Shown piece by piece: positions 11,794 to 42,185 of a stretch of DNA of 45,532 bases. Numbering within the stretch: the stretch's first letter is position 1; each line of letters opens with the position of its first letter. The position numbers were made by a program, and so were the translations under genes. The stretch comes from a virus (Duplodnaviria; Caudoviricetes). The notes beneath the pieces were generated by a model that saw only the letters and a list, made by a program, of their open reading frames with translations, was not told the origin of the DNA and searched no databases. The stretch lies in IMG/VR virus record IMGVR_UViG_3300044455_000078, positions 1 through 45,532 of that record, one strand, 5' to 3'.

Positions 11794-11818
11794 TGGTTAA
11801 ACTTTAACCATAGTAACA

Positions 11819-21382: not shown

Positions 21383-21415
21383 TGGTTAAACTTTAACCAA
21401 AGCAGGAAACAGTTA

Positions 21416-22119: not shown

Positions 22120-22278
22120 TTGTAGCCTAACGAACGTGACTCAATAATGCGCCAGCTCGTTGACATAGACGTATATCTACTTAGCATTACAGACGATTTG
22201 CGTACTATGATTAGGCAGCAAATAACGCTAATAGTTGATCAGCAAGCAATGGAAGTGTCTAGCACTTGCTACGGTTAA
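22120..22278 (+). pseudogene. Small ORF with TAG at codon 2, or a shorter ORF from a downstream ATG
   Basis: TAAGGAG then TTG TAG CCT AAC...; the frame stays open to a TAA inside the palindrome at 22272. Confidence 0.35.
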
Positions 22279-22288
22279 ATTTCATCCA

Positions 22289-22506
22289 AAGCAAGTACGA
22301 GATGCTTTATGTGGATGGTGCTAACGCACAGCGTTTTCTTTGTCCAGCAATTGTAGGCATCTTGTTAGGTGCCAATGCTGCTCATAGTCATAGCTTGAGG
22401 TTACACAGTGGGTTGTTCCAGTGAAGGTTCTTTAGTTCCCTTGAGTAGTCTCATGAACAACCCAGTTATGGGTTGTGAGTGGGGCTCACCAAGAGGCGGC
22501 ACGCCC
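22289..22506 (+). ncRNA. Conserved structured element, copy A
   Basis: Shares GRTGCTAA, AGCAAT, CTYATAGTCATAGC and TTCYCTTGAG blocks, with matching spacing, with copies B and C. Confidence 0.65.
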
Positions 22507-22555
22507 TTATATTAGAGTGTCTACTTATAATTGCACTATTAAAATGGAGTAATAA

Positions 22556-22762
22556 ATGTTATATCTACAAGTTGTAACCAACAATTTTGCCTGTCTAATA
22601 GAAGTTGATGAATATGGGTATATAAGAAAAGCAGCACCTTTACTAAAAATATTTGAGCAACAATATATACGTAATTTAATTCACTGGCTTCAGAACTCAT
22701 TTATTGAGGCTAAAATAATAGACCTATCTGATCAGCGCGTACTATATGAGAAATTTCTATAA
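22556..22762 (+). CDS. Hypothetical protein
   Basis: 68 aa, GGAG Shine-Dalgarno. Confidence 0.6.
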   Translation: MLYLQVVTNNFACLIEVDEYGYIRKAAPLLKIFEQQYIRNLIHWLQNSFIEAKIIDLSDQRVLYEKFL

Positions 22763-22781
22763 CTTAATCTTCGTCCAGGGC

Positions 22782-22810
22782 TTGACAAACGGTAGAAAGT
22801 GTGTTATAAT
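22782..22810 (+). promoter_or_regulatory. Consensus promoter
   Basis: TTGACA-17 bp-TATAAT with TG extension. Confidence 0.8.
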
Positions 22811-22992
22811 ATCTATAGTTGAAATCAGTTCTGCACTGAACGATTTAGATAAGGAGAATAAGTAATGTCTGCAGAGCGGCTCAAATGAGTATAAATGCTC
22901 TGAGTGTTTTATGCAACTTAAATTACTTGAACTTAATGATTAATACCGACTCCGTCGGACTGCCCGCGCGATAGTAGAAAGGAATTACCTTA

Positions 22993-23151
22993 ATGTCAGA
23001 CGGTCAAGTAATTAGCGAATGGCATCACTCTCACAACTGCTATATATGTAAGAAGCATCACGAATGTAGTTGGATGTTTTGTAAGGATCAAAAACAACGT
23101 AATTGTTCAGAGTGTATTAAGCACTTTCAAGAACAAACTAAAGGAGAATAA
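22993..23151 (+). CDS. Small Cys/His-rich zinc-finger protein (52 aa)
   Basis: HNCYICKKHHECSWMFC...NCSEC; AAAGGA Shine-Dalgarno. Confidence 0.6.
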   Translation: MSDGQVISEWHHSHNCYICKKHHECSWMFCKDQKQRNCSECIKHFQEQTKGE

Positions 23152-23153
23152 GA

Positions 23154-23531
23154 ATGGAATGTCCACACTGTAATCAAGAACTTATTCTACGTGGTGATTT
23201 TTCTGAGGAATGTATTGGGCTAGATGGTTGTTCTATTGTAGATGGGAATATCATATTCGAGATTTCCTGTGAGTCTTGCCTAACTACTATTGGAGAACAA
23301 GAGTTACAAATTGCTCTTGATGTAAGTAGCTTTACTGATGAGCACGAAGAGCATGAAGTATCAGTTGATATAGTAAATGAAACATTCCTAACTACTGTAA
23401 CTCCGAAAGGTACTTTTATTGGTGCATCTGCAACTGTACGCTTAAATTGTTCGTGTGGTGAAGCCACTAATTTTGAGTGGTCAGATGAAGAGCGTCAGAA
23501 TGAGTTAATAGATCGCCTGATGTTAGACTAA
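23154..23531 (+). CDS. Acidic zinc-binding protein
   Basis: 125 aa; CPHC, CESC and CSCG motifs; very Glu/Asp-rich. Confidence 0.7.
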   Translation: MECPHCNQELILRGDFSEECIGLDGCSIVDGNIIFEISCESCLTTIGEQELQIALDVSSFTDEHEEHEVSVDIVNETFLTTVTPKGTFIGASATVRLNCSCGEATNFEWSDEERQNELIDRLMLD

Positions 23532-23609
23532 CATTTATGTTCGGGCCGCGCGGTAGTAGCAAATATTACTGCCGGCTCGACTTAATCTTTATTCTAAGTG
23601 AATAAGGAC

Positions 23610-23638
23610 TTGACATTGTAACCAAAGTATGTTATAAT
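23610..23638 (+). promoter_or_regulatory. Consensus promoter
   Basis: TTGACA-17 bp-TATAAT with TG extension. Confidence 0.8.
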
Positions 23639-23643
23639 TACTC

Positions 23644-24084
23644 ATGATTGTGGATAGGCCAAACTTAAAGGATTTTCTGATGACGCCAGAACAAAAAGCA
23701 GAAATGCTTGCCATGCTAAAACAATTGAGTCCTGCGGATCAGCGCGTAATAAAGTACGAAGCTAACGGAGGACACAGGTGTGAATCAAGTACTAATTTAG
23801 TTACTTGCTGTGAAGCAGTACACTGCCAAGCATGTTATGTGCTACATTTGAAGCAGGTCCATAGCAACGCTATGTTGTACGCCTATCAGAAATTCGTGAA
23901 TGCACGGTCCTTAACATGGCAATCTAAAGAATACAAGCTTCCACTAAAAGATAAGGTTGCAAGAACTTTCACACAACGTGCAAAGAACGAGCATTTTGAC
24001 GACCCTACAAGTATCACGGATGCAATAAGTGATGATAATCTCGAATCAATATTAGAAATGTTGAAGCGGAAATTAGGCAGGTAA
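23644..24084 (+). CDS. Zinc-finger protein (paralogue 1)
   Basis: CCEAVHCQACYVLHLKQVH motif. Confidence 0.7.
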   Translation: MIVDRPNLKDFLMTPEQKAEMLAMLKQLSPADQRVIKYEANGGHRCESSTNLVTCCEAVHCQACYVLHLKQVHSNAMLYAYQKFVNARSLTWQSKEYKLPLKDKVARTFTQRAKNEHFDDPTSITDAISDDNLESILEMLKRKLGR

Positions 24085-24087
24085 GTT

Positions 24088-24420
24088 ATGGAACTACTGC
24101 CATTAGCTAGCAATCATGTATGCTTTGTACATGAGGTATTTATGCACTGTGGCAAATTGTTCTGTCGAACATGCTACGGTTTACACGTATACAATGAGCA
24201 TAATATACTCGCCGATTATGAGACGTGGGAAAGTAAACTCATAACTATTAGCGAGTGGCTGATTCGCTTTGAGCAAGCTGCTCTGGAAAGACTTCGTATA
24301 GAAAGAAAGCGTCATTGGCCTAGTATACAAGAAACTGTTGATTCTATGAGTGATAAACAGCTCATGGAATTAGCTGAGTGTATTGGCTCAAAGTTTCAAA
24401 GTGACGTATTTTTGACTTGA
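24088..24420 (+). CDS. Zinc-finger protein (paralogue 2)
   Basis: HCGKLFCRTCYGLHVYNEH motif. Confidence 0.7.
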   Translation: MELLPLASNHVCFVHEVFMHCGKLFCRTCYGLHVYNEHNILADYETWESKLITISEWLIRFEQAALERLRIERKRHWPSIQETVDSMSDKQLMELAECIGSKFQSDVFLT

Positions 24421-24445
24421 CAAGTGTATTGAAACGTGTTATAAT
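24417..24445 (+). promoter_or_regulatory. Consensus promoter
   Basis: TTGACA-17 bp-TATAAT with TG extension. Confidence 0.8.
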
Positions 24446-24549
24446 ATCTATAATGAAAGGAGGGCTAAACAATAAACTCAATTCCTGAAAGGTGCGAGAA
24501 GAACTCATTACTTTAACTTGTATGCGACATAGTCGCGGAAGGTAACTCA

Positions 24550-25098
24550 ATGAAACCAGAAGCAATTAGTGTAAAGACCCAGGGCAAGCCTGAGATGGAA
24601 TTCACCTATAATTTCTCTGAGACTTTGCCTGAGGCAATTGAGATGTATGGTCCAGAAAATACACATGAGCTGTTTAAGCGTGCACTTACAATTGCTGCTC
24701 AGGCAAATGCGCGTAAGATGCTAGCTGCTGGATTGACCGCTGAGCGTATTCAGAATGATATGAGTCAGTGGAAACCTGGCGTGTCAGTGCGATTGACTTC
24801 TTCTATAAAGACCGTTGATCCTGTTAAGGTTATCAGTGAGAACTTTGATGATTGGACTCCAGAACGCCAGGAAGAAATTCTGCGGCTCATTCAAGAGCGC
24901 TTTGCAAAACGCGGCACGACACCTGCTGAATCACCTGCTGTTAATGGCAGTGAAGGTGAGCCCGAGCCGACAGCAGAAGAAATTGCTACTATCACTGAAG
25001 GCGTGAATGGTGATCCGAGTGTGGTAACAGAAGTTCCTGCTGAGCCTCAGCCTACTGAGTACGATCCAGCAGCTGGACGCAGCCGGCGTAATCGTTAG
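24550..25098 (+). CDS. Hypothetical protein with an acidic, Pro-rich tail
   Basis: 182-aa ORF downstream of the promoter. Confidence 0.75.
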   Translation: MKPEAISVKTQGKPEMEFTYNFSETLPEAIEMYGPENTHELFKRALTIAAQANARKMLAAGLTAERIQNDMSQWKPGVSVRLTSSIKTVDPVKVISENFDDWTPERQEEILRLIQERFAKRGTTPAESPAVNGSEGEPEPTAEEIATITEGVNGDPSVVTEVPAEPQPTEYDPAAGRSRRNR

Positions 25099-25135
25099 GA
25101 GTTATTTCTCCTGCGGTTAAATGTTAACCAAAGTA

Positions 25136-25162
25136 AGGGCTGGTGCTATAATTGCCAGCCCT
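25136..25162 (+). terminator. GC-rich hairpin (possible terminator or processing signal)
   Basis: AGGGCTGG...CCAGCCCT directly after the palindrome at 25114; no clear U-tract. Confidence 0.35.
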
Positions 25163-25173
25163 ATAGGAATTGA

Positions 25174-25356
25174 GTGTTGCAACGCGTATTAGATGTTTTT
25201 CAGTTGCTAATTTATCTATCTATGATAGCAGTTTTATTCTGGGTAGGAAGCGTTACAGTTGCTACTATGAATGATATAAGGAGTGATCTAAAGCAAGGTC
25301 AAATTAAGCATGATCAAATGCTTCGTGATCACCGTAAGTTTATGGAGAAGTACTAA
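25174..25356 (+). CDS. Small TM + coiled-coil protein
   Basis: 60 aa with a hydrophobic helix; stop overlaps the next ATG. Confidence 0.6.
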   Translation: MLQRVLDVFQLLIYLSMIAVLFWVGSVTVATMNDIRSDLKQGQIKHDQMLRDHRKFMEKY

Positions 25357-25715
25357 TGGCGCAATACAAACTCATTTATATAGCTGGACCCTACTCGTCA
25401 GATGACAGCAAGCAGAAACGTGCTAATATAGAAGCCGCAATAAATGCAGCAATTTGGTGTGCACGTAATAAAATTTACTATTTCTGTCCTCATATAAATA
25501 GCGCGTATTTTGACGACTTGGCGCCGGATATTCCTACCGAGTTCTTTTGTGAGATGGATTTGCATATAGCACGATTCTGTAGTGCATTAGTCATGCTTCC
25601 TAATTGGGAGCAAAGTAAAGGAGCAACGAAAGAGTATCATTATTTTACTCGTGCTAACAAGCCCGTATTCTACTATCTAAACGAGAAAGAACTTCTACTC
25701 AAATATTACCACTAA
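25356..25715 (+). CDS. DUF4406 / nucleoside 2-deoxyribosyltransferase-like protein
   Basis: IYIAGPYS...CPH...LPNWEQSKGATKE signature. Confidence 0.8.
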   Translation: MAQYKLIYIAGPYSSDDSKQKRANIEAAINAAIWCARNKIYYFCPHINSAYFDDLAPDIPTEFFCEMDLHIARFCSALVMLPNWEQSKGATKEYHYFTRANKPVFYYLNEKELLLKYYH

Positions 25716-25725
25716 AGGAAAACAA

Positions 25726-26085
25726 GTGAACGAGAAACGTAAGGTTTTTGTAGTAGCAAAAGGCTACCACGATTTTTCAGCGGCTGAACAGCATGGTGAA
25801 TTAGTATTTTTATCAACTGAAATAGTGAATCGTACCGCTGTCAGTAATATGCTACGAGAGTTTTTTCCTAGGATGGAAGGGAGCAATCCTGAGGATTATA
25901 TAGTAATAACAGGACTCTCGGTGATGTGCTCAATAGCATGCGTGATATTCGCACTCAAGCACAAACGCTTAAATCTGTTGCTGTTTGATGCGGCAGGAGA
26001 TAAATACGTAAAGCGTTCCGTGATACTAGACTCAATAGAACAAGTGGAAAGAGAATTAGATGAAGCTGCTAGACTTACTACCTGA
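25726..26085 (+). CDS. Conserved phage protein (alpha/beta fold)
   Basis: HDFSAAEQHGELVFL...DYIVITG pattern; 119 aa. Confidence 0.7.
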   Translation: MNEKRKVFVVAKGYHDFSAAEQHGELVFLSTEIVNRTAVSNMLREFFPRMEGSNPEDYIVITGLSVMCSIACVIFALKHKRLNLLLFDAAGDKYVKRSVILDSIEQVERELDEAARLTT

Positions 26086-27040
26086 GCAGGAAACTTGGAA
26101 CGTAATTGATCCAAGTAAATTAAGTGTCTATATGTCATGCCCACGTAAGTTTTTTTACGAACATGTATTACAGTGGAGGGAAGACTATACAAATAATCAC
26201 TTACATTTTGGTAGTTGCTGGCACCTTGCAGTAGAACACTTATTAAATAATCAGTATTCAAAGGAGTCAATTGAGGAGGCGTGTTATATCTTCTATAATG
26301 CTTATAGGTTAAAATTAAGTAGTGAATCTGATGGTCAGTTTGCTCCTAAAGATCCAGCTAATGCTATGCAAACCTTAGTTCAATATGCGCAGAGGTTTGC
26401 TAGCGACTCAAGAGACTATGTAGTGTTAGGTACAGAGATAGGTGGAACTGTACTTATTGCACCAGACTCGCCAATGTTCTTCAAGCTTGATGCACTACTA
26501 CAACGTAAGCGTGATAATAAAGTAATTTGTTTGGACCACAAAACGAGTCAGCGAAGAATGGGCAACTGGTTTGAACAGTGGCTACTTAGTACTCAAATGC
26601 TCACCTACTTACACGTGCTGTATTGTTTATTCGGCGAATCAGACGAAGTTGGAGGTATACGTGTAAGGTGTAGCTTCTTTTACAAGTCTAAGCCAAGTGA
26701 GTTTGATGAGGCTATTGTAGAGAAGAGCTTAAGTCAGATGCAATCTTGGCTAACAAGTCAAACTAATTGGTATGACTCACTCCAATACGACATGAAATTC
26801 CTACTAGAATCTGAGACTACAGATTCACAAGCAATGCGTTCATTTCCTATGAATGAAAAAGCGTGCTTCAATTACGGTAGAAAATGTGCGTTCTTTGACT
26901 TCTGCAATGCATGGAGTAATCCATTAACTAGGTGTGAGCAAGTACCACTAGGATTTGTAAGAGAGATTTGGGATCCTAGAACTGATAGCGGTGCTAAACA
27001 GTTTATCGACTTAACTAAAGAGCAAGCAGTAAATGAATGA
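26060..27040 (+). CDS. Cas4-like PD-(D/E)XK exonuclease
   Basis: SCPRK, FGSCWH, KLD...DHKT, QMLTY and C-terminal C..C...C cysteines (Fe-S staple). Confidence 0.85.
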   Translation: MKLLDLLPEQETWNVIDPSKLSVYMSCPRKFFYEHVLQWREDYTNNHLHFGSCWHLAVEHLLNNQYSKESIEEACYIFYNAYRLKLSSESDGQFAPKDPANAMQTLVQYAQRFASDSRDYVVLGTEIGGTVLIAPDSPMFFKLDALLQRKRDNKVICLDHKTSQRRMGNWFEQWLLSTQMLTYLHVLYCLFGESDEVGGIRVRCSFFYKSKPSEFDEAIVEKSLSQMQSWLTSQTNWYDSLQYDMKFLLESETTDSQAMRSFPMNEKACFNYGRKCAFFDFCNAWSNPLTRCEQVPLGFVREIWDPRTDSGAKQFIDLTKEQAVNE

Positions 27041-27113
27041 GGATGATAAAGTAGTAAATTTGAATCGCTGTCTTATGTGCCGCACAATCCTAGAAGATAA
27101 AAATGAGGATTAA

Positions 27114-27914
27114 ATGATGCCACTTGATGCACGTATTGAAGCAAGTCGATTACGCGGCTTATACAAGGAAGACCCAAAGCAGAGCAGTTTTAATCTATTG
27201 CTCATGGGGGAAACTGGTACAGGTAAAACTTTTATTGCACGCACTGCTAGAAAGCCAGTGCATATTGACTCGTGGGACCCAGCTGGCACAGTATGCTTAC
27301 GAGAATATATACTCAAAGGAGATATAGTAGTAGATACAAAGTATGAACAAGAGGACCCAACTAAACCTGCTATGTTTGACGTATGGTGTAAGGATTTTGA
27401 GCAACGCGAGAAAGATAAGTATTTTGAAAGCTTCGGGACTTATATGCTAGACAGTTCCACCATGTTTGCGGAAGCAATCATGAACAAGATTCTCAAGGCT
27501 GCTAATATTCCAGGACAAGCACCAAGATTCACTCATGATTACGTGCCTCAAAAAGTGATGATTCATAACTGGTTCAAAAGAATACTGTCTCTTCCGTGCG
27601 ACGTTATAATTACGGGACACATAGAGCCTATAAAAGATGAAGTACTTGGTTCGGTAGAGTGGAGATTTATGACTACAGGGAAAGGCACTACAATCATTCC
27701 GCTGTTGTTCACTGAGAAGTGGATTGCTCACACCAAGCAAACAGCAAGTGGAGTTGAGTACCAAATACTCACTCAACGAACTGGTAAGTATATAGCAAGT
27801 AGCAGTATTGCTGCAGGTAAGCTCGACACTTTCGAGGTGCCAGACATTAAGAAAATACTAACTAAGTGTGGCTGGGATTCTAAGGATAAGCCTAGCTTGT
27901 TTGAGAGAAAGTAA
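27114..27914 (+). CDS. AAA (AAA_24 / Sak4-like) ATPase
   Basis: GETGTGKT Walker A, YMLDSST Walker B, IITGH; sits between a Cas4-like and an SSB-like gene. Confidence 0.8.
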   Translation: MMPLDARIEASRLRGLYKEDPKQSSFNLLLMGETGTGKTFIARTARKPVHIDSWDPAGTVCLREYILKGDIVVDTKYEQEDPTKPAMFDVWCKDFEQREKDKYFESFGTYMLDSSTMFAEAIMNKILKAANIPGQAPRFTHDYVPQKVMIHNWFKRILSLPCDVIITGHIEPIKDEVLGSVEWRFMTTGKGTTIIPLLFTEKWIAHTKQTASGVEYQILTQRTGKYIASSSIAAGKLDTFEVPDIKKILTKCGWDSKDKPSLFERK

Positions 27915-28069
27915 ATAGATCACGACGAACTGTTTAAGAATCTCGTATCATTGCACCTGAAAATGGATGCTAGGTTAGACGAGATAAGATCAATACTATA
28001 TCGAGTCGCTGACAATCTAGAAGTTATTACTGAGCTATTACAACGTCAGCGGAAAGAGGACTGAAAAAA

Positions 28070-28624
28070 GTGGTAGATTTTAACAAGCCACAAAAACGGC
28101 GTAAACGCAGTGCCAAACCAACTGATACTGATTTCCGTGCAGACTTAGGTGAACCTCAACTCATGAAAGGTCCGCAAGTATCTGAAGAACCAAAACCAAG
28201 TGTAATTAACAGGAGCAGCAAGATGCCTATTATAGATTTCACTGAATATGATCTCGACAATTTACCAGAGTTAAAGATCCTACCTGCGGGTACTGAGGCA
28301 AAGTTACGTATACTCGAAGTGAGTGTTAAACCGGATCGTAATAGCGACAACATGCTACAAGTGCGGCTTGACGTTGCTGATGAGCCACTGGTGAAAGAAG
28401 TATATTGGCAGTGTCACTTTCCTAGTGGCAGCATGACTGAAAAGCGAGGGATTATGCTCAAGCGTTTTCTCGCTGAATTCTGTGAGGCATTTGATATAGA
28501 TAAAACTGCATCTAATGACACCAGTGAATGGCTTGGACGTGAGGGCTGGGCTATATTAGGCGTAAGGAGTGATGCAAAGTACGGTGACAGTAATGAGGTA
28601 AATAGGTTCCTAAAGCAACAGTAA
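28070..28624 (+). CDS. Putative ssDNA-binding protein (DUF669-like); true start may be the internal MPIIDF ATG after AGGAG
   Basis: LPAGTEAKLRILEV...YGDSNEVNRF; synteny with the Sak4-like ATPase. Confidence 0.65.
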   Translation: MVDFNKPQKRRKRSAKPTDTDFRADLGEPQLMKGPQVSEEPKPSVINRSSKMPIIDFTEYDLDNLPELKILPAGTEAKLRILEVSVKPDRNSDNMLQVRLDVADEPLVKEVYWQCHFPSGSMTEKRGIMLKRFLAEFCEAFDIDKTASNDTSEWLGREGWAILGVRSDAKYGDSNEVNRFLKQQ

Positions 28625-28954
28625 TTTGCGCGTCGTGGAATACAGCTAAGGTAACTCCTGAAAAGCAAGAACTCCTACTTGCCTGCTGTATTCCACTAGC
28701 TTCTACACACACGAACAAAAAGGAGTAATTAATTGGCACTCATCGAAGCAGGTTCTGCTGAAGCTATTGCTTCTTATGACAACTCTCTAAATGAGATTCG
28801 GCAAGAAGTAAGAGAATTACGTAATGATATGCAACTAATGAAAAGCATCATTGAAAATCACGTATTATTAGAGGAATAATGATTACTCTCATATACTCCT
28901 TCGGCTTTGGTATCTTATGGCGCGTGTGGTAATGCACTGGAGTAGGAACATGCT

Positions 28955-29194
28955 ATGAACAAGCCCTACACACATAGGATTACATTTGAAGTAACAGATG
29001 AGCAATACAACAAACTGAAGTTGCACCTTGAGCATGGTATGCTTAAAAGAGTGTTCTCAGTAATAGTAGATGATGCCATACTAATGCTAGATGAGTTTGG
29101 TCAATACTTTGTACTCGCCATGCTAAGTCGTGAGGTGAGTTATAGACGGATGGTAGAAGACTACACTAGGAGTACTGATGGAGGAGACAAATAA
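28955..29194 (+). CDS. Putative ribbon-helix-helix regulator
   Basis: HRITFEVTDEQYNKLK beta-strand/helix pattern. Confidence 0.55.
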   Translation: MNKPYTHRITFEVTDEQYNKLKLHLEHGMLKRVFSVIVDDAILMLDEFGQYFVLAMLSREVSYRRMVEDYTRSTDGGDK

Positions 29195-29312
29195 TGAAAC
29201 TAATGAAACTAACGAACTTGCTGAGTCCATTGAATTTAGCGAGCAACAGGAGAATGATATACTTGAATTTTTGGCTAAATGGCTTGAAGCACAAAAGAAA
29301 TGCAGTGGTTAG
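29178..29312 (+). CDS. Small acidic protein (44 aa)
   Basis: MEETNNETNETNELAESIEFSEQQENDILEFLAKWLEAQKKCSG after AGGAG; stop codon lies in the palindrome. Confidence 0.5.
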   Translation: MEETNNETNETNELAESIEFSEQQENDILEFLAKWLEAQKKCSG

Positions 29313-29322
29313 ATTTTAACCA

Positions 29323-29590
29323 AAGGAATTATTTGTACTCAGTACATTTCACGGCCCAGATGGTTAGTGATTCTACTATCACTGTTCTTTGCGGTGCTAA
29401 ATGGCCAGATGTTTCCTTGGTTAGCAATCTGGAAGAATCTGCATAAGCGGAGTCGTACTCATAGTCATAGCTTGAGGTTATACAGTAGGTTATATCAGCA
29501 ATCCTGCGCTGATTCTCTTGAGTAGCCGGCAGAGCTGAAATGGTTACGGCGTCCCGAAGGTGACGCCATCTTGGTGACGCGAAGCGCTCT
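29323..29590 (+). ncRNA. Conserved structured element, copy B
   Basis: Same blocks as copies A and C; hairpins CCAGAT/ATCTGG, ATCAGC/GCTGAT and GGCGTC/GACGCC. Confidence 0.65.
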
Positions 29591-29617
29591 AATTAATTTT
29601 AGTTAAGGAGATTAGCT

Positions 29618-29845
29618 ATTGCAACGCTTGATGATTTAGCTATTACACAACTATCTAAACTCTCGCCTGAAGAAGGTATGAAGCTCATACTAGAAATGAG
29701 ACTTCGTAGATGCATGCTACCTGAAAAGACTGCTCATGAAAAGCCTGTTAAATCTCGCAAAGAGATTCCTGCTGAATCTACTATAGAATCACTGAGCGAG
29801 ACTCAACTCGCTGATTTGTACTATACTTTAATGGCCAAGCGTTAA
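29618..29845 (+). CDS. 75-aa protein with probable ATT start
   Basis: TAAGGAG lies 7 nt before ATT; reads (M)ATLDDLAITQLSKLSPEEG...LMAKR. Confidence 0.6.
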   Translation: MATLDDLAITQLSKLSPEEGMKLILEMRLRRCMLPEKTAHEKPVKSRKEIPAESTIESLSETQLADLYYTLMAKR

Positions 29846-29860
29846 GAGGAGCTTCTTTAA

Positions 29861-31207: not shown

Positions 31208-31446
31208 TACGAGCACGTGCAGGTAACATATACATCTTCGGTTTGGCTAAGGAAAATATCAAGCGGCTAACTGAAGGTAATCCAATAATAGCTAGACTTA
31301 ATGAGTATGAATTAAACGAACCTGCTATAAGTATAATGATTTGCTATAGTGAAACTGAGGAGAAATTAGCATTTGAATTACAGGAGCTGATGAATGAGGA
31401 TACAAAAATAACTGATTATCGCACGAATCAAAGGAGAAGGAAATGA
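31204..31446 (+). CDS. Hypothetical protein
   Basis: 80 aa, coupled to neighbours by overlaps. Confidence 0.65.
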   Translation: MIRARAGNIYIFGLAKENIKRLTEGNPIIARLNEYELNEPAISIMICYSETEEKLAFELQELMNEDTKITDYRTNQRRRK

Positions 31447-33926
31447 CTCAATTAGTAGGGCCTGATGGACTGCTTAGTTCCAAGATCGCCTTAGTAGGAG
31501 AGCAGCCCGCAAAATACGAAGTAAAATACAATGCCCCTTTTATGGGTCCTGCAGGTAGAAACTTAAATGAATGCCTACAGAATGCACGCATCGCACGTAG
31601 TGCATGTTACCTCACAAATGTAGTGAAGGATGTTGAGTTCGAGTTAGATCGCTACTTTCAATTGAAAGGAAAGAAAGCAGGCGTAACAGTACTTGGCCAA
31701 AAGTATATAGAGGTGCTTAGAAATGAGCTTATGGAAAGTAAAGCTAACGTTATTGTTGCTCTTGGGAACACTGCTCTGTTTGCTCTTACAGATAGAGTTG
31801 GCATTACTGCATGGCGTGGTAGTGTTCTTGAATCTACTCTCTTACCAGGCAGAAAGATTATCCCTACTTTACACCCGGCAATTTACACTGATGAAAAGGT
31901 ACTCGCAAATCCTGCTGCGTATCTCGCGAAGTATTTAATTACTATAGACTTGAAGAAAATTAAAGCTGAGTCTGAGTTTCCTGATATTCGACTTAGTGAT
32001 CGCAAATTACGCATCCAACCAGATTACTACGATTGTATGAGTTGGTTAGAAGAGTGTAAGATGCGAGCTGATGATGGAGCTATCATCTATTACGATATCG
32101 AATTAACTCCAAAGACACAAGAGCTCAGTTGTATAAGCTTCGCCACTTCACCAAGTGAAGTTCTGTGTATTCCATTCGTGAATGCAAAAGGTGATTATTT
32201 TACTGTAGAACAAGAGTATAAGATAATGCTCAGCATTGAGGACTTGTTATCTAATAGTCAATGGATGAAAGGAGGGCAAAATATAGTATTTGATTCACAC
32301 TTCTTACTAAGAAAGTACGGTATAAGAACACGTAATATTGTTGCGGATACGATGATTGCGCAGCATATACTCTACCCAGACTTCGGAGGTAAAACGTACC
32401 GTGGAAAATCGCTAGAATTTATTACGTCTTTTTGGACTGATATACCTTACTATAAACGAGACGGAAAGTTATGGCTCACAGGTATTGGTGATTACTCCAA
32501 GGGATGGAACTACAACTGCCTCGACAGTATAGTGTGTGCTGATTCATTTCCTAAACAACTCACTGAGCTGGAAGAGCGTGGCAATTTCGATGCATATGAG
32601 CGGCAAGTAAAATTAGTGGCACCTTTGTGCTATATGATGGAGCGAGGTATTCGCATAGATAAAGAAGGAATGGAACATGCTGCGAAAAATGCTCGGCTTG
32701 AAGCGGATGAGTTAACGCAGCAAGTGTACTCATTGACTCAAAGAGTCTTTAATCTAGCCTCGCCGCAACAAGTGTGCGAATACTTTTATGTCAATAGAGG
32801 TATTACGCCGTATTTGAATAAGCAAGGCAAATCTACTGTAGATGAGGAAGCATTAACACGAATAGCAAATAAGGGTTTCAAAGAAGCTAGTTTAATACTT
32901 GAGATTCGTCGCCTTCAAAAGAAGTCATCAACATTTCTCAACATCAATAACGTAGATAATGATGGTAGGATGAGATGCTCATATAATCCAGTAGGCACGA
33001 GATTCTCACGCATCTCAAGTAGTGCTAATATCTTTGGTACAGGTTGTAACTTACAAAATATACCTCATGATGTGTTGAGCTATTTTGTGGCCGATCCTGG
33101 ATACGTTATTTACTCGCTTGATATGTCGCAGATTGAATCACGGATTGTTGCATACGTAGGTAATATTACGCAAATGAAAGAAGTATATGAACAAGGACTT
33201 GACATTCACCGACAGACGGGATCACTTATTTTCAACAAGCATTATAACGAAGTTAGTAATGAGCCAGGATCGTGCGCAATTGGAAATGGAAGTCATAGTG
33301 AACGCGATTGGGCCAAGCGAGCAAATCACGGCTTCAATTACGGGTACGGATATAAAGCATTTAGTCTCAAGTATGAAATCCCTGAACGACAAGCTAAATT
33401 CATCTACGATGGCTATCACTCGGCTTATCCAGGACTTAAAGGAGGTTACTGGGCTTATGTTGAGCAGTCACTTAAAGCTACACGAACACTAACTAATCTC
33501 TACGGTAGAAAGGTTACGTTTCTAGGTAAGTTTGGTGAAAAGCTACTCAACGAAGCTTATTCATGTATACCTCAAGGAACGTGTGGTGACCTGGTAAATG
33601 AGCATGGATTAAATTACGTATATTATAACAGCGATCAATTATTTAAGTATGTTGAGCTTCTAACTCAAGTACATGATAGCATAAACTTCCAAATTCCGTT
33701 GTCATTGCCGCTAATATACCACGCAGGCATTTTGCTAGATATAAAACGATCACTGGAACAGCCACTGACATTTAGGCAGCGAGAATTTGTAGTGCCAGTA
33801 GACCTAGTTGTAAATACTTGCCTCAATAAGAATTTAGGTATTGAGTTGAAAGGAAATAAATTTAGTGATGATCCGAGTACGCTTGAAGCATATTTACAAG
33901 ATGCAATTTTAACCTTAGGACTATAG
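31443..33926 (+). CDS. polA: Family A DNA polymerase with N-terminal uracil-DNA-glycosylase-like and 3'-5' exonuclease domains
   Basis: UDG4-like GEQP...PFMGPAG, TNVVK, TLHPA; Exo DIE, NIVFD, YNCLD; Pol DMSQIESR, RDWAKRANHGFNYG, QVHDSI. Confidence 0.93.
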   Translation: MTQLVGPDGLLSSKIALVGEQPAKYEVKYNAPFMGPAGRNLNECLQNARIARSACYLTNVVKDVEFELDRYFQLKGKKAGVTVLGQKYIEVLRNELMESKANVIVALGNTALFALTDRVGITAWRGSVLESTLLPGRKIIPTLHPAIYTDEKVLANPAAYLAKYLITIDLKKIKAESEFPDIRLSDRKLRIQPDYYDCMSWLEECKMRADDGAIIYYDIELTPKTQELSCISFATSPSEVLCIPFVNAKGDYFTVEQEYKIMLSIEDLLSNSQWMKGGQNIVFDSHFLLRKYGIRTRNIVADTMIAQHILYPDFGGKTYRGKSLEFITSFWTDIPYYKRDGKLWLTGIGDYSKGWNYNCLDSIVCADSFPKQLTELEERGNFDAYERQVKLVAPLCYMMERGIRIDKEGMEHAAKNARLEADELTQQVYSLTQRVFNLASPQQVCEYFYVNRGITPYLNKQGKSTVDEEALTRIANKGFKEASLILEIRRLQKKSSTFLNINNVDNDGRMRCSYNPVGTRFSRISSSANIFGTGCNLQNIPHDVLSYFVADPGYVIYSLDMSQIESRIVAYVGNITQMKEVYEQGLDIHRQTGSLIFNKHYNEVSNEPGSCAIGNGSHSERDWAKRANHGFNYGYGYKAFSLKYEIPERQAKFIYDGYHSAYPGLKGGYWAYVEQSLKATRTLTNLYGRKVTFLGKFGEKLLNEAYSCIPQGTCGDLVNEHGLNYVYYNSDQLFKYVELLTQVHDSINFQIPLSLPLIYHAGILLDIKRSLEQPLTFRQREFVVPVDLVVNTCLNKNLGIELKGNKFSDDPSTLEAYLQDAILTLGL

Positions 33927-33928
33927 CT

Positions 33929-34198
33929 ATGCAAACTGAAGAAGGTTTTCAGCTGGTTCCAGAAAGTAAGTGTCCAACTTGTAACTACACACTAAATGCG
34001 GTAGCAGAAAGAGGAGCGCCTGTATCATCTATGCCACAAGAAGATGATATAACTATGTGTATAGAGTGTTATACACCGCTATTATTTAATAAGGACTTAA
34101 GTATACGGTTATTAAATGAGGAAGAAAAAATAGCATTAAGTAATCTAATTAATGAAATGACTAATAATTTAGTTTTCATGAAAAGAGATCATAAATGA
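33929..34198 (+). CDS. Zinc-ribbon protein
   Basis: CPTC...CIEC. Confidence 0.7.
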   Translation: MQTEEGFQLVPESKCPTCNYTLNAVAERGAPVSSMPQEDDITMCIECYTPLLFNKDLSIRLLNEEEKIALSNLINEMTNNLVFMKRDHK

Positions 34199-35391
34199 GC
34201 AGAAATTTAAGTGATTGGTTAGATGCGTATATGCTATTTACTGAAGAAACAGAACCATGCGAGCTGTATAGGCAATGGGTAGGAGTTAGTGTTATTGCTG
34301 CAGCTCTACAGCGTAAATGCTACTTACATTGGGGCTCACAAGTTTGGTATCCAAATCTCTATATTGTACTAACGGGTCCTCCAGGAGAGCCTCGTAAAGG
34401 TACTGCAATGGCTTCTGGTTATAGTGTATTACGGCCACTCAATCTCAAACTGTCTGCCGACAGACTCACACCTGAGCACTTTATTAAAGAGTTAAGTTCT
34501 TGCCTTATAACAACTCAGTTTGATGCTGGTAAGTTTATGAATCACTGTTCATTAACGGTATTCAGTAAGGAATTAACAGTATTTATTGGGTATAGGAATT
34601 CACAATTTCTTGCAGATTTAACTGATTTGTATGACTGTGCAGATACGTGGTCATATAGAACTAAAGGAAGTGGGCAATTTGAAGTAACAGGTGCATGGCT
34701 AAATATGCTTGCTGCAACTACACCGGAGCAAATACAAGCAGCACTTCCTCCTGAAGCAATAGGTGGTGGATTTGCTAGTAGGGTACTATTTATATATGCG
34801 GAAAAAAGAGGTAAAACTGTTCCAGTTCCAATTGAGAACGTTGAATTAAAGCAGAAATTGATAGCGGATTTAGAAGAGATTTCGTTACTGGCTGGACCAT
34901 TTGGGGCTACGAATGAGTACATAGCCACACGTACCGAATGGTACGTAAGTCAATCGCAAGAGAATCAAGTAATCCAAGATGCTAGATTTGCAGCGTACTA
35001 TAGTAGGAAAGCAAGTACAGCAACTAAACTTAGTATGATATTGAGTGCGTCGCGCAGTGATGAAATGAAACTACGAGAAGTAGACTTTATACGAGCAGTT
35101 GAGATGCTTGACGAGGCTGAGATTCCTATGATGCGAGCACTAAGTGGAGTAGGTAAATCTGATTATGCTGAAATTCTGCCTCAAGTTATGGAGGAGATTC
35201 TAAGGCATAAAGAAGTTACTATGCGATACCTAATGAATAAGTTCTCACATGATACGACACAATTTCACCTCACAAAAATGATAGAAACTCTAGAGCTAAT
35301 GGGAGTACTTTCTTATGCACCACTAACAAGAAAGGTACATGTGAATCCTGATTTCGGTAAGAGCCAACAACAGAACGATCAGGTAAACTAA
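34195..35391 (+). CDS. DUF3987-like P-loop replication protein (putative helicase)
   Basis: NLYIVLTGPPGEPRKGTA, LTDLYDC, LNMLAATTP and GGFASRVLF motifs. Confidence 0.75.
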   Translation: MSRNLSDWLDAYMLFTEETEPCELYRQWVGVSVIAAALQRKCYLHWGSQVWYPNLYIVLTGPPGEPRKGTAMASGYSVLRPLNLKLSADRLTPEHFIKELSSCLITTQFDAGKFMNHCSLTVFSKELTVFIGYRNSQFLADLTDLYDCADTWSYRTKGSGQFEVTGAWLNMLAATTPEQIQAALPPEAIGGGFASRVLFIYAEKRGKTVPVPIENVELKQKLIADLEEISLLAGPFGATNEYIATRTEWYVSQSQENQVIQDARFAAYYSRKASTATKLSMILSASRSDEMKLREVDFIRAVEMLDEAEIPMMRALSGVGKSDYAEILPQVMEEILRHKEVTMRYLMNKFSHDTTQFHLTKMIETLELMGVLSYAPLTRKVHVNPDFGKSQQQNDQVN

Positions 35392-35437
35392 TGGAATAAG
35401 TAGCATTTTCTACGGTTAAAATTTAACCAAAGGAGAA

Positions 35438-38400
35438 TTATCTTCTTCTTTCTCTACGCTCTGGCCGTTCACGTCCCGGCTCTTGAGAGTACCATCCCAT
35501 GAGTGAATCATACGTATTCTCGCCACGCTTTAATCCACGTAGTGTTTTGCTAGTTTGTCTAGTGTAAGGGATACCCAAAAGTGTTGCTGTGGGCTCAAGT
35601 GGATTAGATGCCATTGGATCACCACGATAAGAACGTGCAAGATCACGTGCTATTTCACTTGCGGGCCCAGCAATCCCTCTACCGTATCGCATACTGCCAA
35701 CTCCTGGAATACGCTCCACTTGTCCTACTGCAAGGTCAAAAGCAAGATGTGGTAGGCTATGATCTTCCTTCATACCTTTACGTACATCCTCAACTGGATC
35801 AGGCAGTGGCGGTTGTATATGTAGCAGTTTATATAACTCATTTACTAACTGTGTCTTGATCAGCAATCCCAGAACGTTTTTAATAAACTGTGTTTGAGTA
35901 CGTGGGCCACCAGTCTCCCAACTACCAGTGCCACTAGGTACTCCACCTGGAGGTATATTGCTACCACCTCCACCACCACTCTTACCTTTACTAAGTACTT
36001 CATTTCTAAGGAAATTGAAATCACTTATTATGAACGTCTGGAACTGGGTGATTAATTTACCTAATGCATTACGCTGCGCACCTGATAAGTCACCTGGCAT
36101 TGTACTTCCTTGTGTGCGTACAACTAAGTCATCTGCATAGTGTACTGCATCCTTATGACTGTAGCCCATCTTAGAATTACGAGCAATTTTGTAGGCAGCA
36201 TTCCAACTCATAACTGCCGCTTCCATATCGAACAGCTCAAGTAACTTGAAGCCAGGCTGACCCAGAGCTTGCTGTACACTACCAAAATCACCTACACGTA
36301 TTGCGTGAAAGAAATCACGTGGTCTACGTCCTATTATAGCAGCAGCTGCTTGATTGTACGCGTCAATGAACTTACGTGAACTAAGTATTTCACTGCTCTC
36401 TAATGCAAATTGCCGCCGTTTGCCGCCGGTGAAATGATCTGCTAGGTTTGCAAAGACGGCTTGGACAGTTGCAGATGTACCTAATGCCTGACTCGTGTTG
36501 ACTAATGTACTTAATTGGATTCCAGCTGAACGAAACAAGCCCGATAGTGTAGCATATGCTATATTGCTGTTCAGTGTTTGCAGTACTATACGCTGCGTAG
36601 CTGGAATATCCATGTTTGTTCCAGTTGCAAGATAATCCGTCCATCGTCGTAGCTCAGTATAGAGTCCTGGCTTTTGATCCTTCAATGACCAAGTTTCTTT
36701 ACTGGTAACTGGATCAGGCAAGTTTGTATCAATAAGCTCATTCGTCTTCGCAATAAATGGACTCATATGAATGTCTTTGAGTGCGGCTTGTGCATAGGTA
36801 TCTAATATCTTGAGTGCATTCATTTCTGCTGTATAGAATGCGTGTTTACGTATCACGTATGGAAAGTTCGTAGCTTTGTGGTGAATATATTTAGAGTTTA
36901 TTGCGGCTGGAGTATCACGTGCTAGATCAACCTTTATTCCTATACGATTCAACAAGCTTATTGTACGTGCGAATGTTTGGTAGTCATCGACATGCGGTAG
37001 CGGTTCACGACCTGTTGCCTCACGTACTTCATTTATTCGAGTTTCAAGCGCAGCATAAACGCTATCGAATTTGGCTTGTAATTTTCTCTCAGGAATAGTA
37101 AGTGGTTTTGGTGTTACCTTATTGTAGGTAAGTATTCTTTGACCGTCTGCACCTTGACGCTGATATCCATTTGCACCAATGTTCTCTAGTGATCTCGAAC
37201 TGAAGCCACGGCTGATTTCTTGCATATCTACGTGTAGAGTATTCAACTCAGCATTAAGGTTCTTCTGTGCGGTGCGGTATGCGTAGTAGATAAATTCTGT
37301 GCCTGCTGCTTTGTGCTGTCGTATAGGAAGCTTCAAATCCCACGCCGTTCCACCAGGCTTAATATCACGTGCAGACTGCAAAGCAGTTACTTCACTCTTC
37401 CACAAAGGCGGTGCCTCAAGATGCGAAATTTTACTTATTACTCGATGCTTAACTACACGATCTCCTTTTATTACGTTCTCAGGATCAAAGCGCATATTAC
37501 GTGGATTTGTAGAATCTGGTGGTGCTGGATTATTGATCCTATCTAAATACGTCTCAAACTGAGCTACGTCTTCAGGTCTCGCACCAAACAGGAATTCACG
37601 TACGGTCTTGCCAGCCTTATGCATATCAGCTTGTAATCGCTGTGCAGCCATGCGCATTTCACGAGTGAAGTTTCCACCTATTGCACCTTGCTCGCCAATC
37701 ATAGTGTTTAGATCATCAAGTATATCAATGAATGCTCGACGTTCAGAAGTATCAATTCCTGCCCGATCAGTTTCAAGCATTTGCCTATAGTGTGGTATCA
37801 ATTCGCTGGGCAATCTTTCGCTAATGTCTACGCCTTGCTCTATAGCTTCCATAATCTCTCGAACTGTAGCAGGTCCAATATCACTTGTTTTGCTCTCAAC
37901 ATATGCACCAGCAGTTTCGCTGCTAATTGGCTTAGGAGCCAGGTTATCACCATTATTGAGGCGAGCATCAGTCCTGACGACATCTTTAGGAACGAGTTCA
38001 TAGTTCTTACCTTTCTTTACGTACAAATCAACACCAGTTTCAGCAGCAATACGAATTGCTTCACGCATGAGTTCTTGACCAGTAAATTCTTGTGCACGGT
38101 CAATCGGCAAGCCGGCAATATCAGCCTGACGTTGTAAGCTATCACGTAATACCTGGCCTACATCCGGACTCGTTCGTCCACTTTGAACTTGCCACTCAAT
38201 ATCTGTCAGTGTAGTACGAGAGTTCATACCAGTAGTATCGACAAATAAAGCATTGGGCTTGCCACCTGTAGTACGTACTTGTATAGATGTGCGTATTGGT
38301 TCAGTGTATTGTGATGGAAGTGTAGTAGAACGAGCACTTTCATTCAAGCCAGCAATATTACTTATTTCAACAAATCCTACGCTATCACCTTGTTGTAGCT

Positions 38401-40348
38401 GTATTTCTTCCTCAGCAATAACACGAGTTTCAGATGTAGTTGTTTCAGGTGCTTTCACAACTCTACGTTTACGTTTAGGCTTCTCAATTGCAGGACTTGT
38501 ATCTACTACTGATTCACTAGGTGCAGGAATTTCTACTTCAGTTCCAACTGGTGCAGTGTCGAGTACAGCCTCAGTTGCTGCAGTTTGTATGGCTGGTTTG
38601 TCTGCTACTTGTTGAAGCGTTTCAGTTCCAGCTTTCTTTGCACGTACTTTACGCAGCTGCTCGGCTATACCTCTTATTTCTTCTCGTGGAAATCCAAGAT
38701 CCATTAATCCCTTAAGTATATTTGAGCCATTTGCTGCTTCACGTGCAAGTCCTTTTAGCTCAGCTAATTTACCATCGTTCAAAAAAGCACGTGCTCGTGG
38801 ATCAGCTAGATTAGGACTAGCAGGAAGTGCAGCAGCTACTGTTGGTATCTCTGGTGAAACTGGTGCTGGTACAGTTTCAGGAGCAACAGTAGCTGCCACT
38901 TCAGGAGTAATTGCTGCAGCTGGTGGTAAATCCTCAGTACGAAAAGTTGTAGTGTCGCCACCTACCGTAGGACGTATTAATTCAGTAGGTGGAACTGTAG
39001 TTTCTTGTCTCCCGACATCTTCAGGTGCTAATGGACGATCAGCTGTTGGAGTAGGAGTAGGTATTGGTGCTTCTTGCCTACCAAGCACTGCATCTGCTAC
39101 TTCCATAGTATTTACTGGATGTGTTCCACGAGATTGCGGCTTGGGTATTTTATTTAGCTCAGTTTTAAGTGCTTCTATATTCGACTCAGGACCAAAGAGA
39201 TCAGGACGTTCAGTACGAAGCTGCTCTGTTTTACTGCGCAATGCTGATTCGTATTGTTCAAGCGCTGGATCAATAGCAGCACCTCCACCAGGTGCAGGAC
39301 CTTCGGGCTGCAGTTCACGTGGTGGTCGTCCTGCTTCACGATCAGCTTCATTTATAAACTTACCACGTGCTTCATCTATAGCTCTATCAAGCTGAGGATT
39401 TTTTGAGGCGGCATTTGCTAAGTCCTCAGCTGCACCTGTTGCATCAGCATCAGTTTTTCCTTTAGAGAATCGCTCCTTAAAGTTAGCTATTTTTGCTCTA
39501 AGTTCTGGTGCGGCCTCACGTATTCCACGATCTAATTTATAGAATAGATAAAGTTCTGTGGCAAAACTAAGTACTTTTGCTGTATCCTCATTAAGAATAC
39601 CTGCAGATGTAAGACCTTTTGCCGGTAGTTCAGCTATATCCTTCATAAAACCAGTTACTGTACCAACAGCCCTGTTAACATTCTTTGCAATATCAGATCT
39701 TGGTTCTGGAGTAAGATCATGAATAGTTTTATCCATACGCTGGAAGATATCACGGTAATGTGTTGGACTTTCAGGGCCGCCAGCTAATGGCCCACCGCCA
39801 GCAATACGTGCTAATTGTGTATTAAGAATATCACTAGCAGCTGTTGCAGCACCAAATGCAAATGCTCCCATTCCAGCAAGTGTTTTACCACCAGCTTCAG
39901 CTATATCACGTACAAAACCTGCGTGCTTTTGTAGTGTACTATAAATACTAAAAGGTTCACCCGAACTTGGAGTAGGTTGCAAGCCTAAAGGTTGTACGAG
40001 TTTCGATGAGCCAGGAGAAATAGCATCATTTGCACCTTCACCAATACGCGAAAGAATATTAGGTACATTTACATTCGGCATTGAAACACTTGGTAAAAGT
40101 TCGCGACCTTTTTGAAGTGTTGTTTTGCCAGCCTGAACAGTAGCAGGATCGAGTGGTACTGGAGGTGTAAGTTCAGTACCAGCTGGCTGACCAGTTAGTT
40201 TACTGTAGTGACTACGTAATGCTTCTTCTAAAGGAGGTTTAGTAGGAACATTTCGTGCTTCTATTTTCTTTAGACCAAATATATCTGCTTCACCTGATTC
40301 GCCTTCAAGTAAATAGCGTTCAACGTCGATAGGAGTAGTTGTTGCCAT
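35438..40348 (-). CDS. Large internal virion / ejection protein
   Basis: 1636 aa, last gene of the structural arm; ADDLVVRTQG...LITQFQTF resembles large podoviral core proteins. Confidence 0.65.
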   Translation of the reverse strand: MATTTPIDVERYLLEGESGEADIFGLKKIEARNVPTKPPLEEALRSHYSKLTGQPAGTELTPPVPLDPATVQAGKTTLQKGRELLPSVSMPNVNVPNILSRIGEGANDAISPGSSKLVQPLGLQPTPSSGEPFSIYSTLQKHAGFVRDIAEAGGKTLAGMGAFAFGAATAASDILNTQLARIAGGGPLAGGPESPTHYRDIFQRMDKTIHDLTPEPRSDIAKNVNRAVGTVTGFMKDIAELPAKGLTSAGILNEDTAKVLSFATELYLFYKLDRGIREAAPELRAKIANFKERFSKGKTDADATGAAEDLANAASKNPQLDRAIDEARGKFINEADREAGRPPRELQPEGPAPGGGAAIDPALEQYESALRSKTEQLRTERPDLFGPESNIEALKTELNKIPKPQSRGTHPVNTMEVADAVLGRQEAPIPTPTPTADRPLAPEDVGRQETTVPPTELIRPTVGGDTTTFRTEDLPPAAAITPEVAATVAPETVPAPVSPEIPTVAAALPASPNLADPRARAFLNDGKLAELKGLAREAANGSNILKGLMDLGFPREEIRGIAEQLRKVRAKKAGTETLQQVADKPAIQTAATEAVLDTAPVGTEVEIPAPSESVVDTSPAIEKPKRKRRVVKAPETTTSETRVIAEEEIQLQQGDSVGFVEISNIAGLNESARSTTLPSQYTEPIRTSIQVRTTGGKPNALFVDTTGMNSRTTLTDIEWQVQSGRTSPDVGQVLRDSLQRQADIAGLPIDRAQEFTGQELMREAIRIAAETGVDLYVKKGKNYELVPKDVVRTDARLNNGDNLAPKPISSETAGAYVESKTSDIGPATVREIMEAIEQGVDISERLPSELIPHYRQMLETDRAGIDTSERRAFIDILDDLNTMIGEQGAIGGNFTREMRMAAQRLQADMHKAGKTVREFLFGARPEDVAQFETYLDRINNPAPPDSTNPRNMRFDPENVIKGDRVVKHRVISKISHLEAPPLWKSEVTALQSARDIKPGGTAWDLKLPIRQHKAAGTEFIYYAYRTAQKNLNAELNTLHVDMQEISRGFSSRSLENIGANGYQRQGADGQRILTYNKVTPKPLTIPERKLQAKFDSVYAALETRINEVREATGREPLPHVDDYQTFARTISLLNRIGIKVDLARDTPAAINSKYIHHKATNFPYVIRKHAFYTAEMNALKILDTYAQAALKDIHMSPFIAKTNELIDTNLPDPVTSKETWSLKDQKPGLYTELRRWTDYLATGTNMDIPATQRIVLQTLNSNIAYATLSGLFRSAGIQLSTLVNTSQALGTSATVQAVFANLADHFTGGKRRQFALESSEILSSRKFIDAYNQAAAAIIGRRPRDFFHAIRVGDFGSVQQALGQPGFKLLELFDMEAAVMSWNAAYKIARNSKMGYSHKDAVHYADDLVVRTQGSTMPGDLSGAQRNALGKLITQFQTFIISDFNFLRNEVLSKGKSGGGGGSNIPPGGVPSGTGSWETGGPRTQTQFIKNVLGLLIKTQLVNELYKLLHIQPPLPDPVEDVRKGMKEDHSLPHLAFDLAVGQVERIPGVGSMRYGRGIAGPASEIARDLARSYRGDPMASNPLEPTATLLGIPYTRQTSKTLRGLKRGENTYDSLMGWYSQEPGRERPERRERRR

Positions 40349-40371
40349 TAATTAATCCTCATATAAATAAT

Positions 40372-40584
40372 AGCGCTGCGCGTCCTTACTGACGACGCTG
40401 CGATAAACCACCTGGATTGTTCAGCCACGCGCTCAAGGGAATCAATGCAACTTGTCGGTTCCACCTATCGTATAAGCCATGCTATGACTATAAGATCGAC
40501 TCCGTTCTCGCAGCTTTTTACAGATTGCTTCCAAGAACACATGCTGCGGGTTAGCATCAAGGCGATCAGCAGTACTTGCTGCTT
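40372..40584 (-). ncRNA. Conserved structured element, copy C
   Basis: Minus strand reads GATGCTAA...AGCAATCTG...CGGAGTCG..CTTATAGTCATAGC...TTCCCTTGAG...GACGCGCAGCGCT. Confidence 0.65.
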
Positions 40585-40609
40585 CGGTTAAAATCTAACC
40601 ACACTGAAC

Positions 40610-42156: not shown

Positions 42157-42185
42157 TTCTATCTCCTTCGGTTAAAGTTTAACCA

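Follow-up and report, generated by a model that had tools for sequence, protein, structure and literature searches.

Palindrome-associated, probably folded elements in a tailed phage without a recognisable primase: a family of candidate single-stranded DNA signals

The window analysed here, the 45,532-nucleotide virus record IMGVR_UViG_3300044455_000078, is a complete 45.5-kb phage genome with terminal repeats of 185 nt. It carries three related non-coding elements of 200–270 bases, denoted A, B and C, each next to a repeated palindrome (Table 1). A preliminary description had noted that the three regions share one layout with nearly fixed block spacing, and all blocks of that layout were found. 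The distance from GCTAA to CTYA is 61, 62 and 61 nt in A, B and C (64, 65 and 64 nt if counted three bases earlier) and that from CTYA to TTCY is 55, 55 and 53 nt; the distance from AGTAC to GCTAA varies (26, 55 and 21 nt). Sequence identity is 71% over 128 nt between B and C, and 69% over 134 nt between A and B. Compared with dinucleotide shuffles, the likeness among the three yielded z values of 17–27, a score reached in none of 150 shuffles. No Rfam model matched in the window, and A, B and C gave no match at gathering level or even at E<10, which agrees with the statement that they follow no recognised riboswitch, ribozyme or intron consensus; no ribozyme or intron model gave a hit. A covariance model found no fourth copy in the window, and blastn returned no match for B against plasmids or for C against annotated phages.

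Table 1. Positions of the elements, palindromic sites and other features in the window.
Feature	Position	Strand	Remarks
Palindromic site before A	22273..22287	.	15-bp core, 2 mismatches
Element A	22288..22506	+	terminal 4-bp hairpin with GCA loop, 22495-22505
Blocks of A	22294, 22318, 22346, 22381, 22436	+	AGTAC, GTGCTAA, AGCAAT, CTCATAGTCATAGC, TTCCCTTGAG
Palindromic site before B	29307..29321	.	
Element B	29322..29590	+	cGAAg loops near 29556 and at 29578-29586
Blocks of B	29341, 29394, 29423, 29458, 29513	+	same order as in A
Palindromic site before C	40586..40600	.	
Element C	40372..40585	-	terminal cGCAg mini-hairpin 40374-40382
Blocks of C	40576, 40557, 40529, 40494, 40441	-	same order as in A
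Other palindromes	2452, 4002, 16357, 18335, 18991, 22086, 25115, 35414, 42764		
Class X sister element	42185..42380	+	rod; antisense to both flanking genes
Rod pairing in class X element	42295-42301 with 42319-42325		TGTCAAG with CTTGACA; -10-like hexamer 42344-42349
O-group sister element	11555..11794	-	mixed group; orthologue in relative G007
O-group sister element	21094..21383	-	working strand uncertain; shares GAGCTGAAA module with B
Family A DNA polymerase	31443..33926	+	uracil-DNA glycosylase and 3'-5' exonuclease domains (Pfam)
DUF3987 helicase	34195..35391	+	MCM-like fold, without primase domain; PHROGs label 'DNA primase'
79-aa protein	28955..29194	+	weak ribbon-helix-helix likeness (under naming bar); candidate palindrome binder, lead only
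Portal gene	11819-14824	-	intein-like insertion containing LAGLIDADG domain
75-codon open reading frame after B	29618-29845	+	starts ATT (ATG in relatives), good ribosome-binding site; possible rare start codon
Tandem 14-nt repeat with GGAG motif	19237-19306	+	divergent promoter region
int-alpA (Rfam)	28639-28707	+	35.3 bits, just below the threshold of 35.8

To find homologues, 485 kb of sequence were searched with a covariance model built from the three cores. The top non-self match, L011:5357-5511(-), was full length with an E value of 1.4. Collinear alignment supported this copy and an orthologue, L117:528-725(-), with z values of 6.0 and 8.1; among the 84 comparisons made, the highest of the remainder was 3.5. 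A profile from the three copies alone did not detect these two true homologues; the five-member profile found nothing further in 216 sequences (3.4 Mb), and the covariance model gave no match in 92 distant loci. Judged by Rfam, the covariance model and the alignments, the elements form an undescribed, repeated non-coding family with homologues, as had been proposed. Both homologues are oriented antisense to the genes on either side, and the L117 copy has no palindrome; with two of five members antisense to both flanking genes, the suggested ligand-sensing leader or riboswitch is excluded. Scans for further copies with exact patterns were discarded: in viral contigs (5, 29 and 5 loci) they returned chance matches or a known element of the O group described below, in 45 related records nine chance matches to a 9-mer, and in metagenome contigs one locus within an ABC-transporter gene.

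The elements had been described as each starting with the palindrome. The site does precede A, B and C; it is nevertheless an independent feature and mostly element-free. There are 13 matches to it in the window at up to two mismatches, located at gene junctions, including those between convergent genes, and by our own assignment only six of the window's sites carry an element. On the element strand the mismatches within the palindrome comprise 17 G.T and 6 A.C, and by eye the two flanks vary independently of each other. Because both wobble types occur and the flanks vary independently, we suggest that the palindrome is bound by a protein as duplex DNA. A and B can pair with their own palindromes (block 29413-29431 of B is complementary to B's palindrome half, z -4.9), but C and most other elements cannot. 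Desulfofustis phage LS06 has nine such sites with a different core and the same flanks, within AT-rich sequence, and 26 of 157 distant loci hold at least three perfect copies of a palindrome of their own (three rows of N runs were dropped); in ten distant loci inspected, most sites lead straight into a gene. Since LS06 and the distant loci have their own palindromes, the site is old and family-wide; the elements belong to the close clade only. Dispersed 15-bp palindromes were also seen in L143, L020, L151 and others, with conserved flanks, lineage-specific cores and positions at syntenic gene junctions. One distant relative has a GC-rich non-coding stretch right after a palindrome (L222:4101-4253, +), which no element profile matches.

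The slots beside the palindromes are shared with other elements. By hand, 43–45 outward-facing non-coding stretches of 175–290 nt were collected beside palindromes from the window and six close records; polymerases of the close clade are 80–86% identical. Two sister groups were distinguished, class X and a mixed group O. The 14 slots equivalent to those of A, B and C in five close relatives hold class X in eight cases and O-group elements in four, with none adjacent in two, and the window itself has one class X and two O-group elements in addition to A, B and C. Each of five complete genomes contains 6–12 elements, on both strands, and class make-up differs by genome: nine class X elements in G003, three A/B/C elements in the window, no class X in G007. 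Modules recur across slots and classes. The 5' part of A is homologous to the O-group element occupying the same slot in relative G013 (39517R, z 13.5), the start of the B core to an O-group element of G001 (12440R, z 5.7), and the 3' part of B to O-group elements of the window (21384R, z 5.7) and of G013 (45827F, z 5.1); tips and arms of class X are common to different slots and genomes, and by eye most members of all classes have a similar 5' module of RYRCTW plus a pyrimidine tract. Gene modules between palindromes likewise vary widely in identity among relatives. The classes are mosaics, from which we infer that they may have passed from slot to slot through recombination where their modules match. 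The swapping of slots fits the non-autonomous mobile element that had been among the options proposed. A, B and C are three of the five known members of one class in a larger set of modular 180–290-nt cassettes just outward of the palindrome. A suspected likeness of O-group words to the cyclic di-AMP riboswitch was not borne out by Rfam.

Class X provides the link to known DNA signals. Its predicted fold is a long rod, in which a -35 hexamer pairs with its complement across a variable tip and a -10-like hexamer lies in a loose region 17–20 nt beyond the -35 (by eye). The -35-like hexamer is present in 19 of 20 copies. Rod pairs, counted in the 20 of 21 copies that could be anchored, comprised 837 Watson-Crick, 94 G.A, 42 G.T, 40 A.C and 42 C.T pairs. 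G.A is thus the dominant mismatch and, as G.T is about as frequent as A.C, there is no excess of RNA-type wobble. By its predicted fold, class X has the layout of Frpo, in which -35 and -10 boxes are rebuilt in folded single-stranded DNA (ssDNA), as described in PMC11541004 and PMC9849209; here both would be rebuilt in a long imperfect stem. No sequence similarity to plasmid Frpo or ssi signals was found for class X among 72,556 plasmids (blastn, E<=1).

The loops of the elements point in the same direction. Mini-hairpins of the cGNAg type are far more stable as DNA than as RNA and mark the initiation sites of G4, RSF1010 ssiA and N4, according to PMC13037366. In class X, 34 such hairpins were counted on the outward strand (5.8 expected) and five on the inward strand. 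A, B and C have four outward (0.7 expected, a count reached in one of 300 shuffles) and none inward, so that DNA-type mini-hairpins on one strand, as in ssi and sso signals, are present in them at a small count. The densities are 7.6 per kb in class X and 5.6 in A/B/C, with a background of 0.86. Among hairpins with 3-bp stems in A, B and C, none has a GNRA or UUCG loop. All five members of the class close with a GC-rich hairpin whose loop is 3 nt long and, in each of A, B and C, a GNA triloop. In one O-group hairpin the loop reads GAA, GAAA or GTAA depending on the copy, a variation that fits DNA mini-hairpins and is also compatible with RNA. Given the GNA triloops and the slots shared with class X, we consider it reasonably probable that A, B and C fold as ssDNA and not as RNA; of the folded RNA first proposed, the repeated, structure-like and non-coding character stands, and loop motifs and sister class favour ssDNA. 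Genome-wide, cGNAg hairpins with stems of at least 4 bp on both strands numbered 16 in the window (4.0 expected) and 11 in G033 (1.6 expected), with an excess also in G003 and G013 and none in 119X, LS06, G007 or G028.

The gene content of the window bears on what such signals might do. Searches of 50 open reading frames against PHROGs and 27 proteins against Pfam identified a terminase, an intein-bearing portal, a capsid, ejection-type proteins, an exonuclease, a Sak4-like annealing protein, a ParB-methylase, a family A polymerase and a DUF3987 protein. No primase family was found among them, apart from the PHROGs label carried by the DUF3987 protein, which is a mislabelled helicase of 398 aa with an MCM-like fold and no primase domain. 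By this protein the closest annotated relatives are Desulfofustis phage LS06 (39% identity) and then the PaP2/119X/PaMx41 group (31%; the helicase of 119X is 31% identical). Contigs of metagenome-assembled genomes with a DUF3987 helicase are at most 50% identical, taxonomically scattered and give no host assignment. The phage sequence is present in two DNA runs of one soil metagenome sample, which may be the source sample; these runs contained no variants or joints in it, and no RNA run was among the matches listed. Rfam searches of relatives found only int-alpA, at another place (above threshold at L018:22201-22268, -); this site and the one in the window lie in intergenic regions occupied by elements in other relatives.

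DUF3987 proteins are classed in PMC4889955 as superfamily 6 helicases, and 119X is listed there among phages without a detectable primase, possibly with non-canonical priming; a 5'-to-3' polarity has been shown for one DUF3987 helicase (PMC11724360). In phiX174 and pT181, host enzymes prime at ssi or sso signals (PMC5714925). Based on the helicase without a primase domain, the Frpo-shaped sister class, the GNA-triloop ends and the occurrence in both orientations, we tentatively propose, at somewhat less than an even chance, that A, B and C represent one of several classes of exchangeable folded-ssDNA signals whose function is probably priming, in a phage without a recognisable primase. A protein would bind the palindrome in duplex DNA, and strand displacement, or the helicase if it is loaded at the palindrome and shares the 5'-to-3' polarity of the one DUF3987 enzyme tested, would expose the outward-reading strand. 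The exposed cassette would then fold, resist single-stranded DNA-binding protein and recruit a host priming enzyme, which for class X would be sigma-70 RNA polymerase and for A/B/C another factor (DnaG, PriA or other). Primer synthesis would proceed back in the direction of the palindrome. A bolder form of this proposal is that a clade of 119X-related double-stranded DNA phages replaced its primase gene with 6–12 swappable folded-ssDNA priming cassettes at protein-bound palindromes on both strands, each class recruiting a different host enzyme; A/B/C would then be a structurally new kind of DNA signal that has a protein partner of its own. We regard it as possible, if doubtful.

A number of observations weigh against folded-ssDNA priming signals. 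The cGNAg count of A/B/C comprises four hairpins in related sequences, two of them with only two contiguous pairs; the terminal loop of the L011 and L117 homologues is GTC instead of GNA; and the O group shows no strand preference in cGNAg hairpins (11 outward, 15 inward) and has GNRA loops in excess (18, with 7.8 expected). Compared with shuffles, A alone has a better fold, whether as RNA or as DNA (z -3.3 and -3.6); B (-1.1 and -0.8) and C (+0.1 and -0.3) do not, so that the stems described between the blocks are well founded for A, partly for B and weakly for C. Across the five sequences competing helices appear, and there is no shared core fold with significant covariation: for three hand-picked helices (n=5, 82% of cells paired), the covariation was reached by 301 of 500 shuffles. 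No promoter was found on the own strand of A, B or C, apart from a weak 9/12 site at the extreme 3' end of C; the three elements do not rebuild -35 and -10 boxes in a stem and share no sequence with plasmids. Matches to the A/B/C or X elements were absent at E<0.9 from 157 distant loci (2.45 Mb), and no element of either kind was detected in 119X or LS06. As distant relatives with the same helicase, including the primase-less 119X, have no detectable element, the family replicates without the elements, which are therefore not required family-wide. A divergent primase could be missed among the unannotated open reading frames, and the proposed tie between the elements and replication is drawn from sequence and predicted fold. 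Two hand-built structures were abandoned: a TGCT/AGCA helix drawn from the three copies is absent among the helices kept in at least four of five sequences, and a five-helix model lies 12–35 kcal/mol above the minimum-energy fold and is not claimed.

Structured non-coding RNAs transcribed outward from the palindrome, such as a ribozyme, processing signal, protein or ligand sponge, or guide scaffold, would account for the conserved, unpaired-looking blocks with near-fixed spacing, for the frequent G.T pairs in hand-drawn helices and for the GNRA excess of the O group, and, as PMC5737381 cautions, computation does not readily tell ssDNA motifs from RNA motifs. Distant relatives also carry clear RNA genes, once just after a palindrome. 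These are tRNA-shaped, with acceptor, D and T arms, and hold in the anticodon region 67–169 nt that are mutually unrelated (L251:2568-2791, L254:373-587, L263:~2510-2660, L202:622-798, L224:~2120-2290, L229:3654-3811, L230:2385-2546 and L238:~500-619). Their inserts are unlike A, B and C and were rejected as kin, two of eight scoring above shuffles, in each case solely when compared with a single O element read on its opposite strand. The failure to match Rfam, the folding of B and C no better than shuffles as RNA, GNA triloops in place of tetraloops, a DNA-type promoter rod that has slots and modules in common with these elements, and antisense copies that exclude a leader role make the RNA explanation rather unlikely; if it were correct, the elements would be an uncatalogued multi-copy phage RNA family.

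The cassettes might instead be mobile regulatory or recombination modules of the promoter plus stem-loop (PeSL) type of T4, which recombine (PMC2839356, PMC4122927), or selfish, non-autonomous ssDNA elements that land by the palindrome, with no part in priming. Differing class make-up, modules shuffled among slots, confinement to one clade and the widely varying identity of gene modules between palindromes are all consistent with this. Such a cassette explains the patchy mosaic spread equally well; it does not explain the promoter-in-stem design. A, B and C lack a sigma-70 promoter and do not end in a terminator; the PHROGs and Pfam searches of the window's own open reading frames gave nothing above the cut-off for transposase, integrase or reverse transcriptase families; and a duplex promoter alone would need neither a conserved complementary arm nor antisense copies. 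We judge mobility without priming to be unlikely.

Folded DNA could also act in transcription or as a decoy, as ssDNA or cruciform promoters of the Frpo or N4 kind or as a trap for host RNA polymerase or an ssDNA-sensing defence. Frpo drives expression from ssDNA in vivo (PMC9849209), and N4 promoters use the same mini-hairpins (PMC13037366). Transcripts from the folded X strand, however, would head for the palindrome and in most copies enter the upstream gene in antisense, and no phage RNA polymerase was found with PHROGs or Pfam. We know of no route that gives ssDNA at entry for such a phage, and regard this explanation as very unlikely. A short peptide with an HSHS motif encoded in the conserved core is scarcely credible, because although the HSHS frame is stop-free for ~45–67 codons in all three copies, these have no start codon in common, C shifts frame after HSHS (the preliminary description had argued from a 1-nt indel between B and C) while base conservation continues, silent changes account for only two of the ten B–C differences there, the blocks are separated by unrelated residues, and the homologues are antisense to local genes.

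PMC4889955 names as an open question how primase-less phages such as 119X begin DNA synthesis. Few complex folds of natural ssDNA are on record, and Frpo and ssi signals are known from plasmids and ssDNA phages. The present elements are defined substrates of ~200 nt that are usable in standard ssi assays without phage or host. Taken together, the family is real and uncatalogued and, provided that the reasoning from fold and gene content holds, could plausibly work like ssi/Frpo signals. In the literature covered, to which subscription papers, the supplements of PMC5737381 and the catalogue of PMC10690425 do not belong, no such elements are described in a double-stranded DNA tailed phage.

Among known systems, class X resembles the Frpo/ssi signals of F and IncI1 plasmids, which are of similar size, occur in several copies per replicon and, in the manner of ssDNA, form a long imperfect rod in which the -35 and -10 boxes are restored (PMC11541004, PMC9849209). 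In contrast to these, the present elements occur in a double-stranded DNA tailed phage, on both strands, tied to a palindrome and without sequence likeness to plasmids, and A/B/C have no promoter boxes. The complementary-strand origin of phage G4 and RSF1010 ssiA are likewise multi-hairpin signals of 100–250 nt with GNA/GNNA mini-hairpin caps (PMC13037366, PMC5714925); here, several interchangeable classes occur per genome, no cognate primase gene was found and priming is a proposal. T4-type PeSLs are also intergenic cassettes of promoter and stem-loop that occur repeatedly and are reshuffled by recombination, as described in PMC2839356 and PMC4122927, yet their stem-loops are RNA terminators beside a duplex promoter, whereas here the promoter lies within the stem (class X) or is absent (A/B/C) and copies are antisense; a sigma-70 promoter with terminator stem-loops was not found in A, B or C. 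For integron attC sites or IS200/IS605-type elements, no cognate integrase or HUH transposase exceeded the cut-off in the above PHROGs and Pfam searches of the window's own open reading frames. The plasmid motifs ARRPOF, GEBRO and PAGEV are structured, 220–350 nt long and suspected to act as ssDNA in replication (PMC5737381); unlike them, A/B/C match no Rfam model. Finally, the palindrome alone can be compared with the stoperators of mycobacteriophages, which are also numerous protein-binding-like sites dispersed at gene junctions (PMC9283540). Stoperators are asymmetric, whereas the sites found here are symmetric, with conserved flanks and lineage-specific cores.

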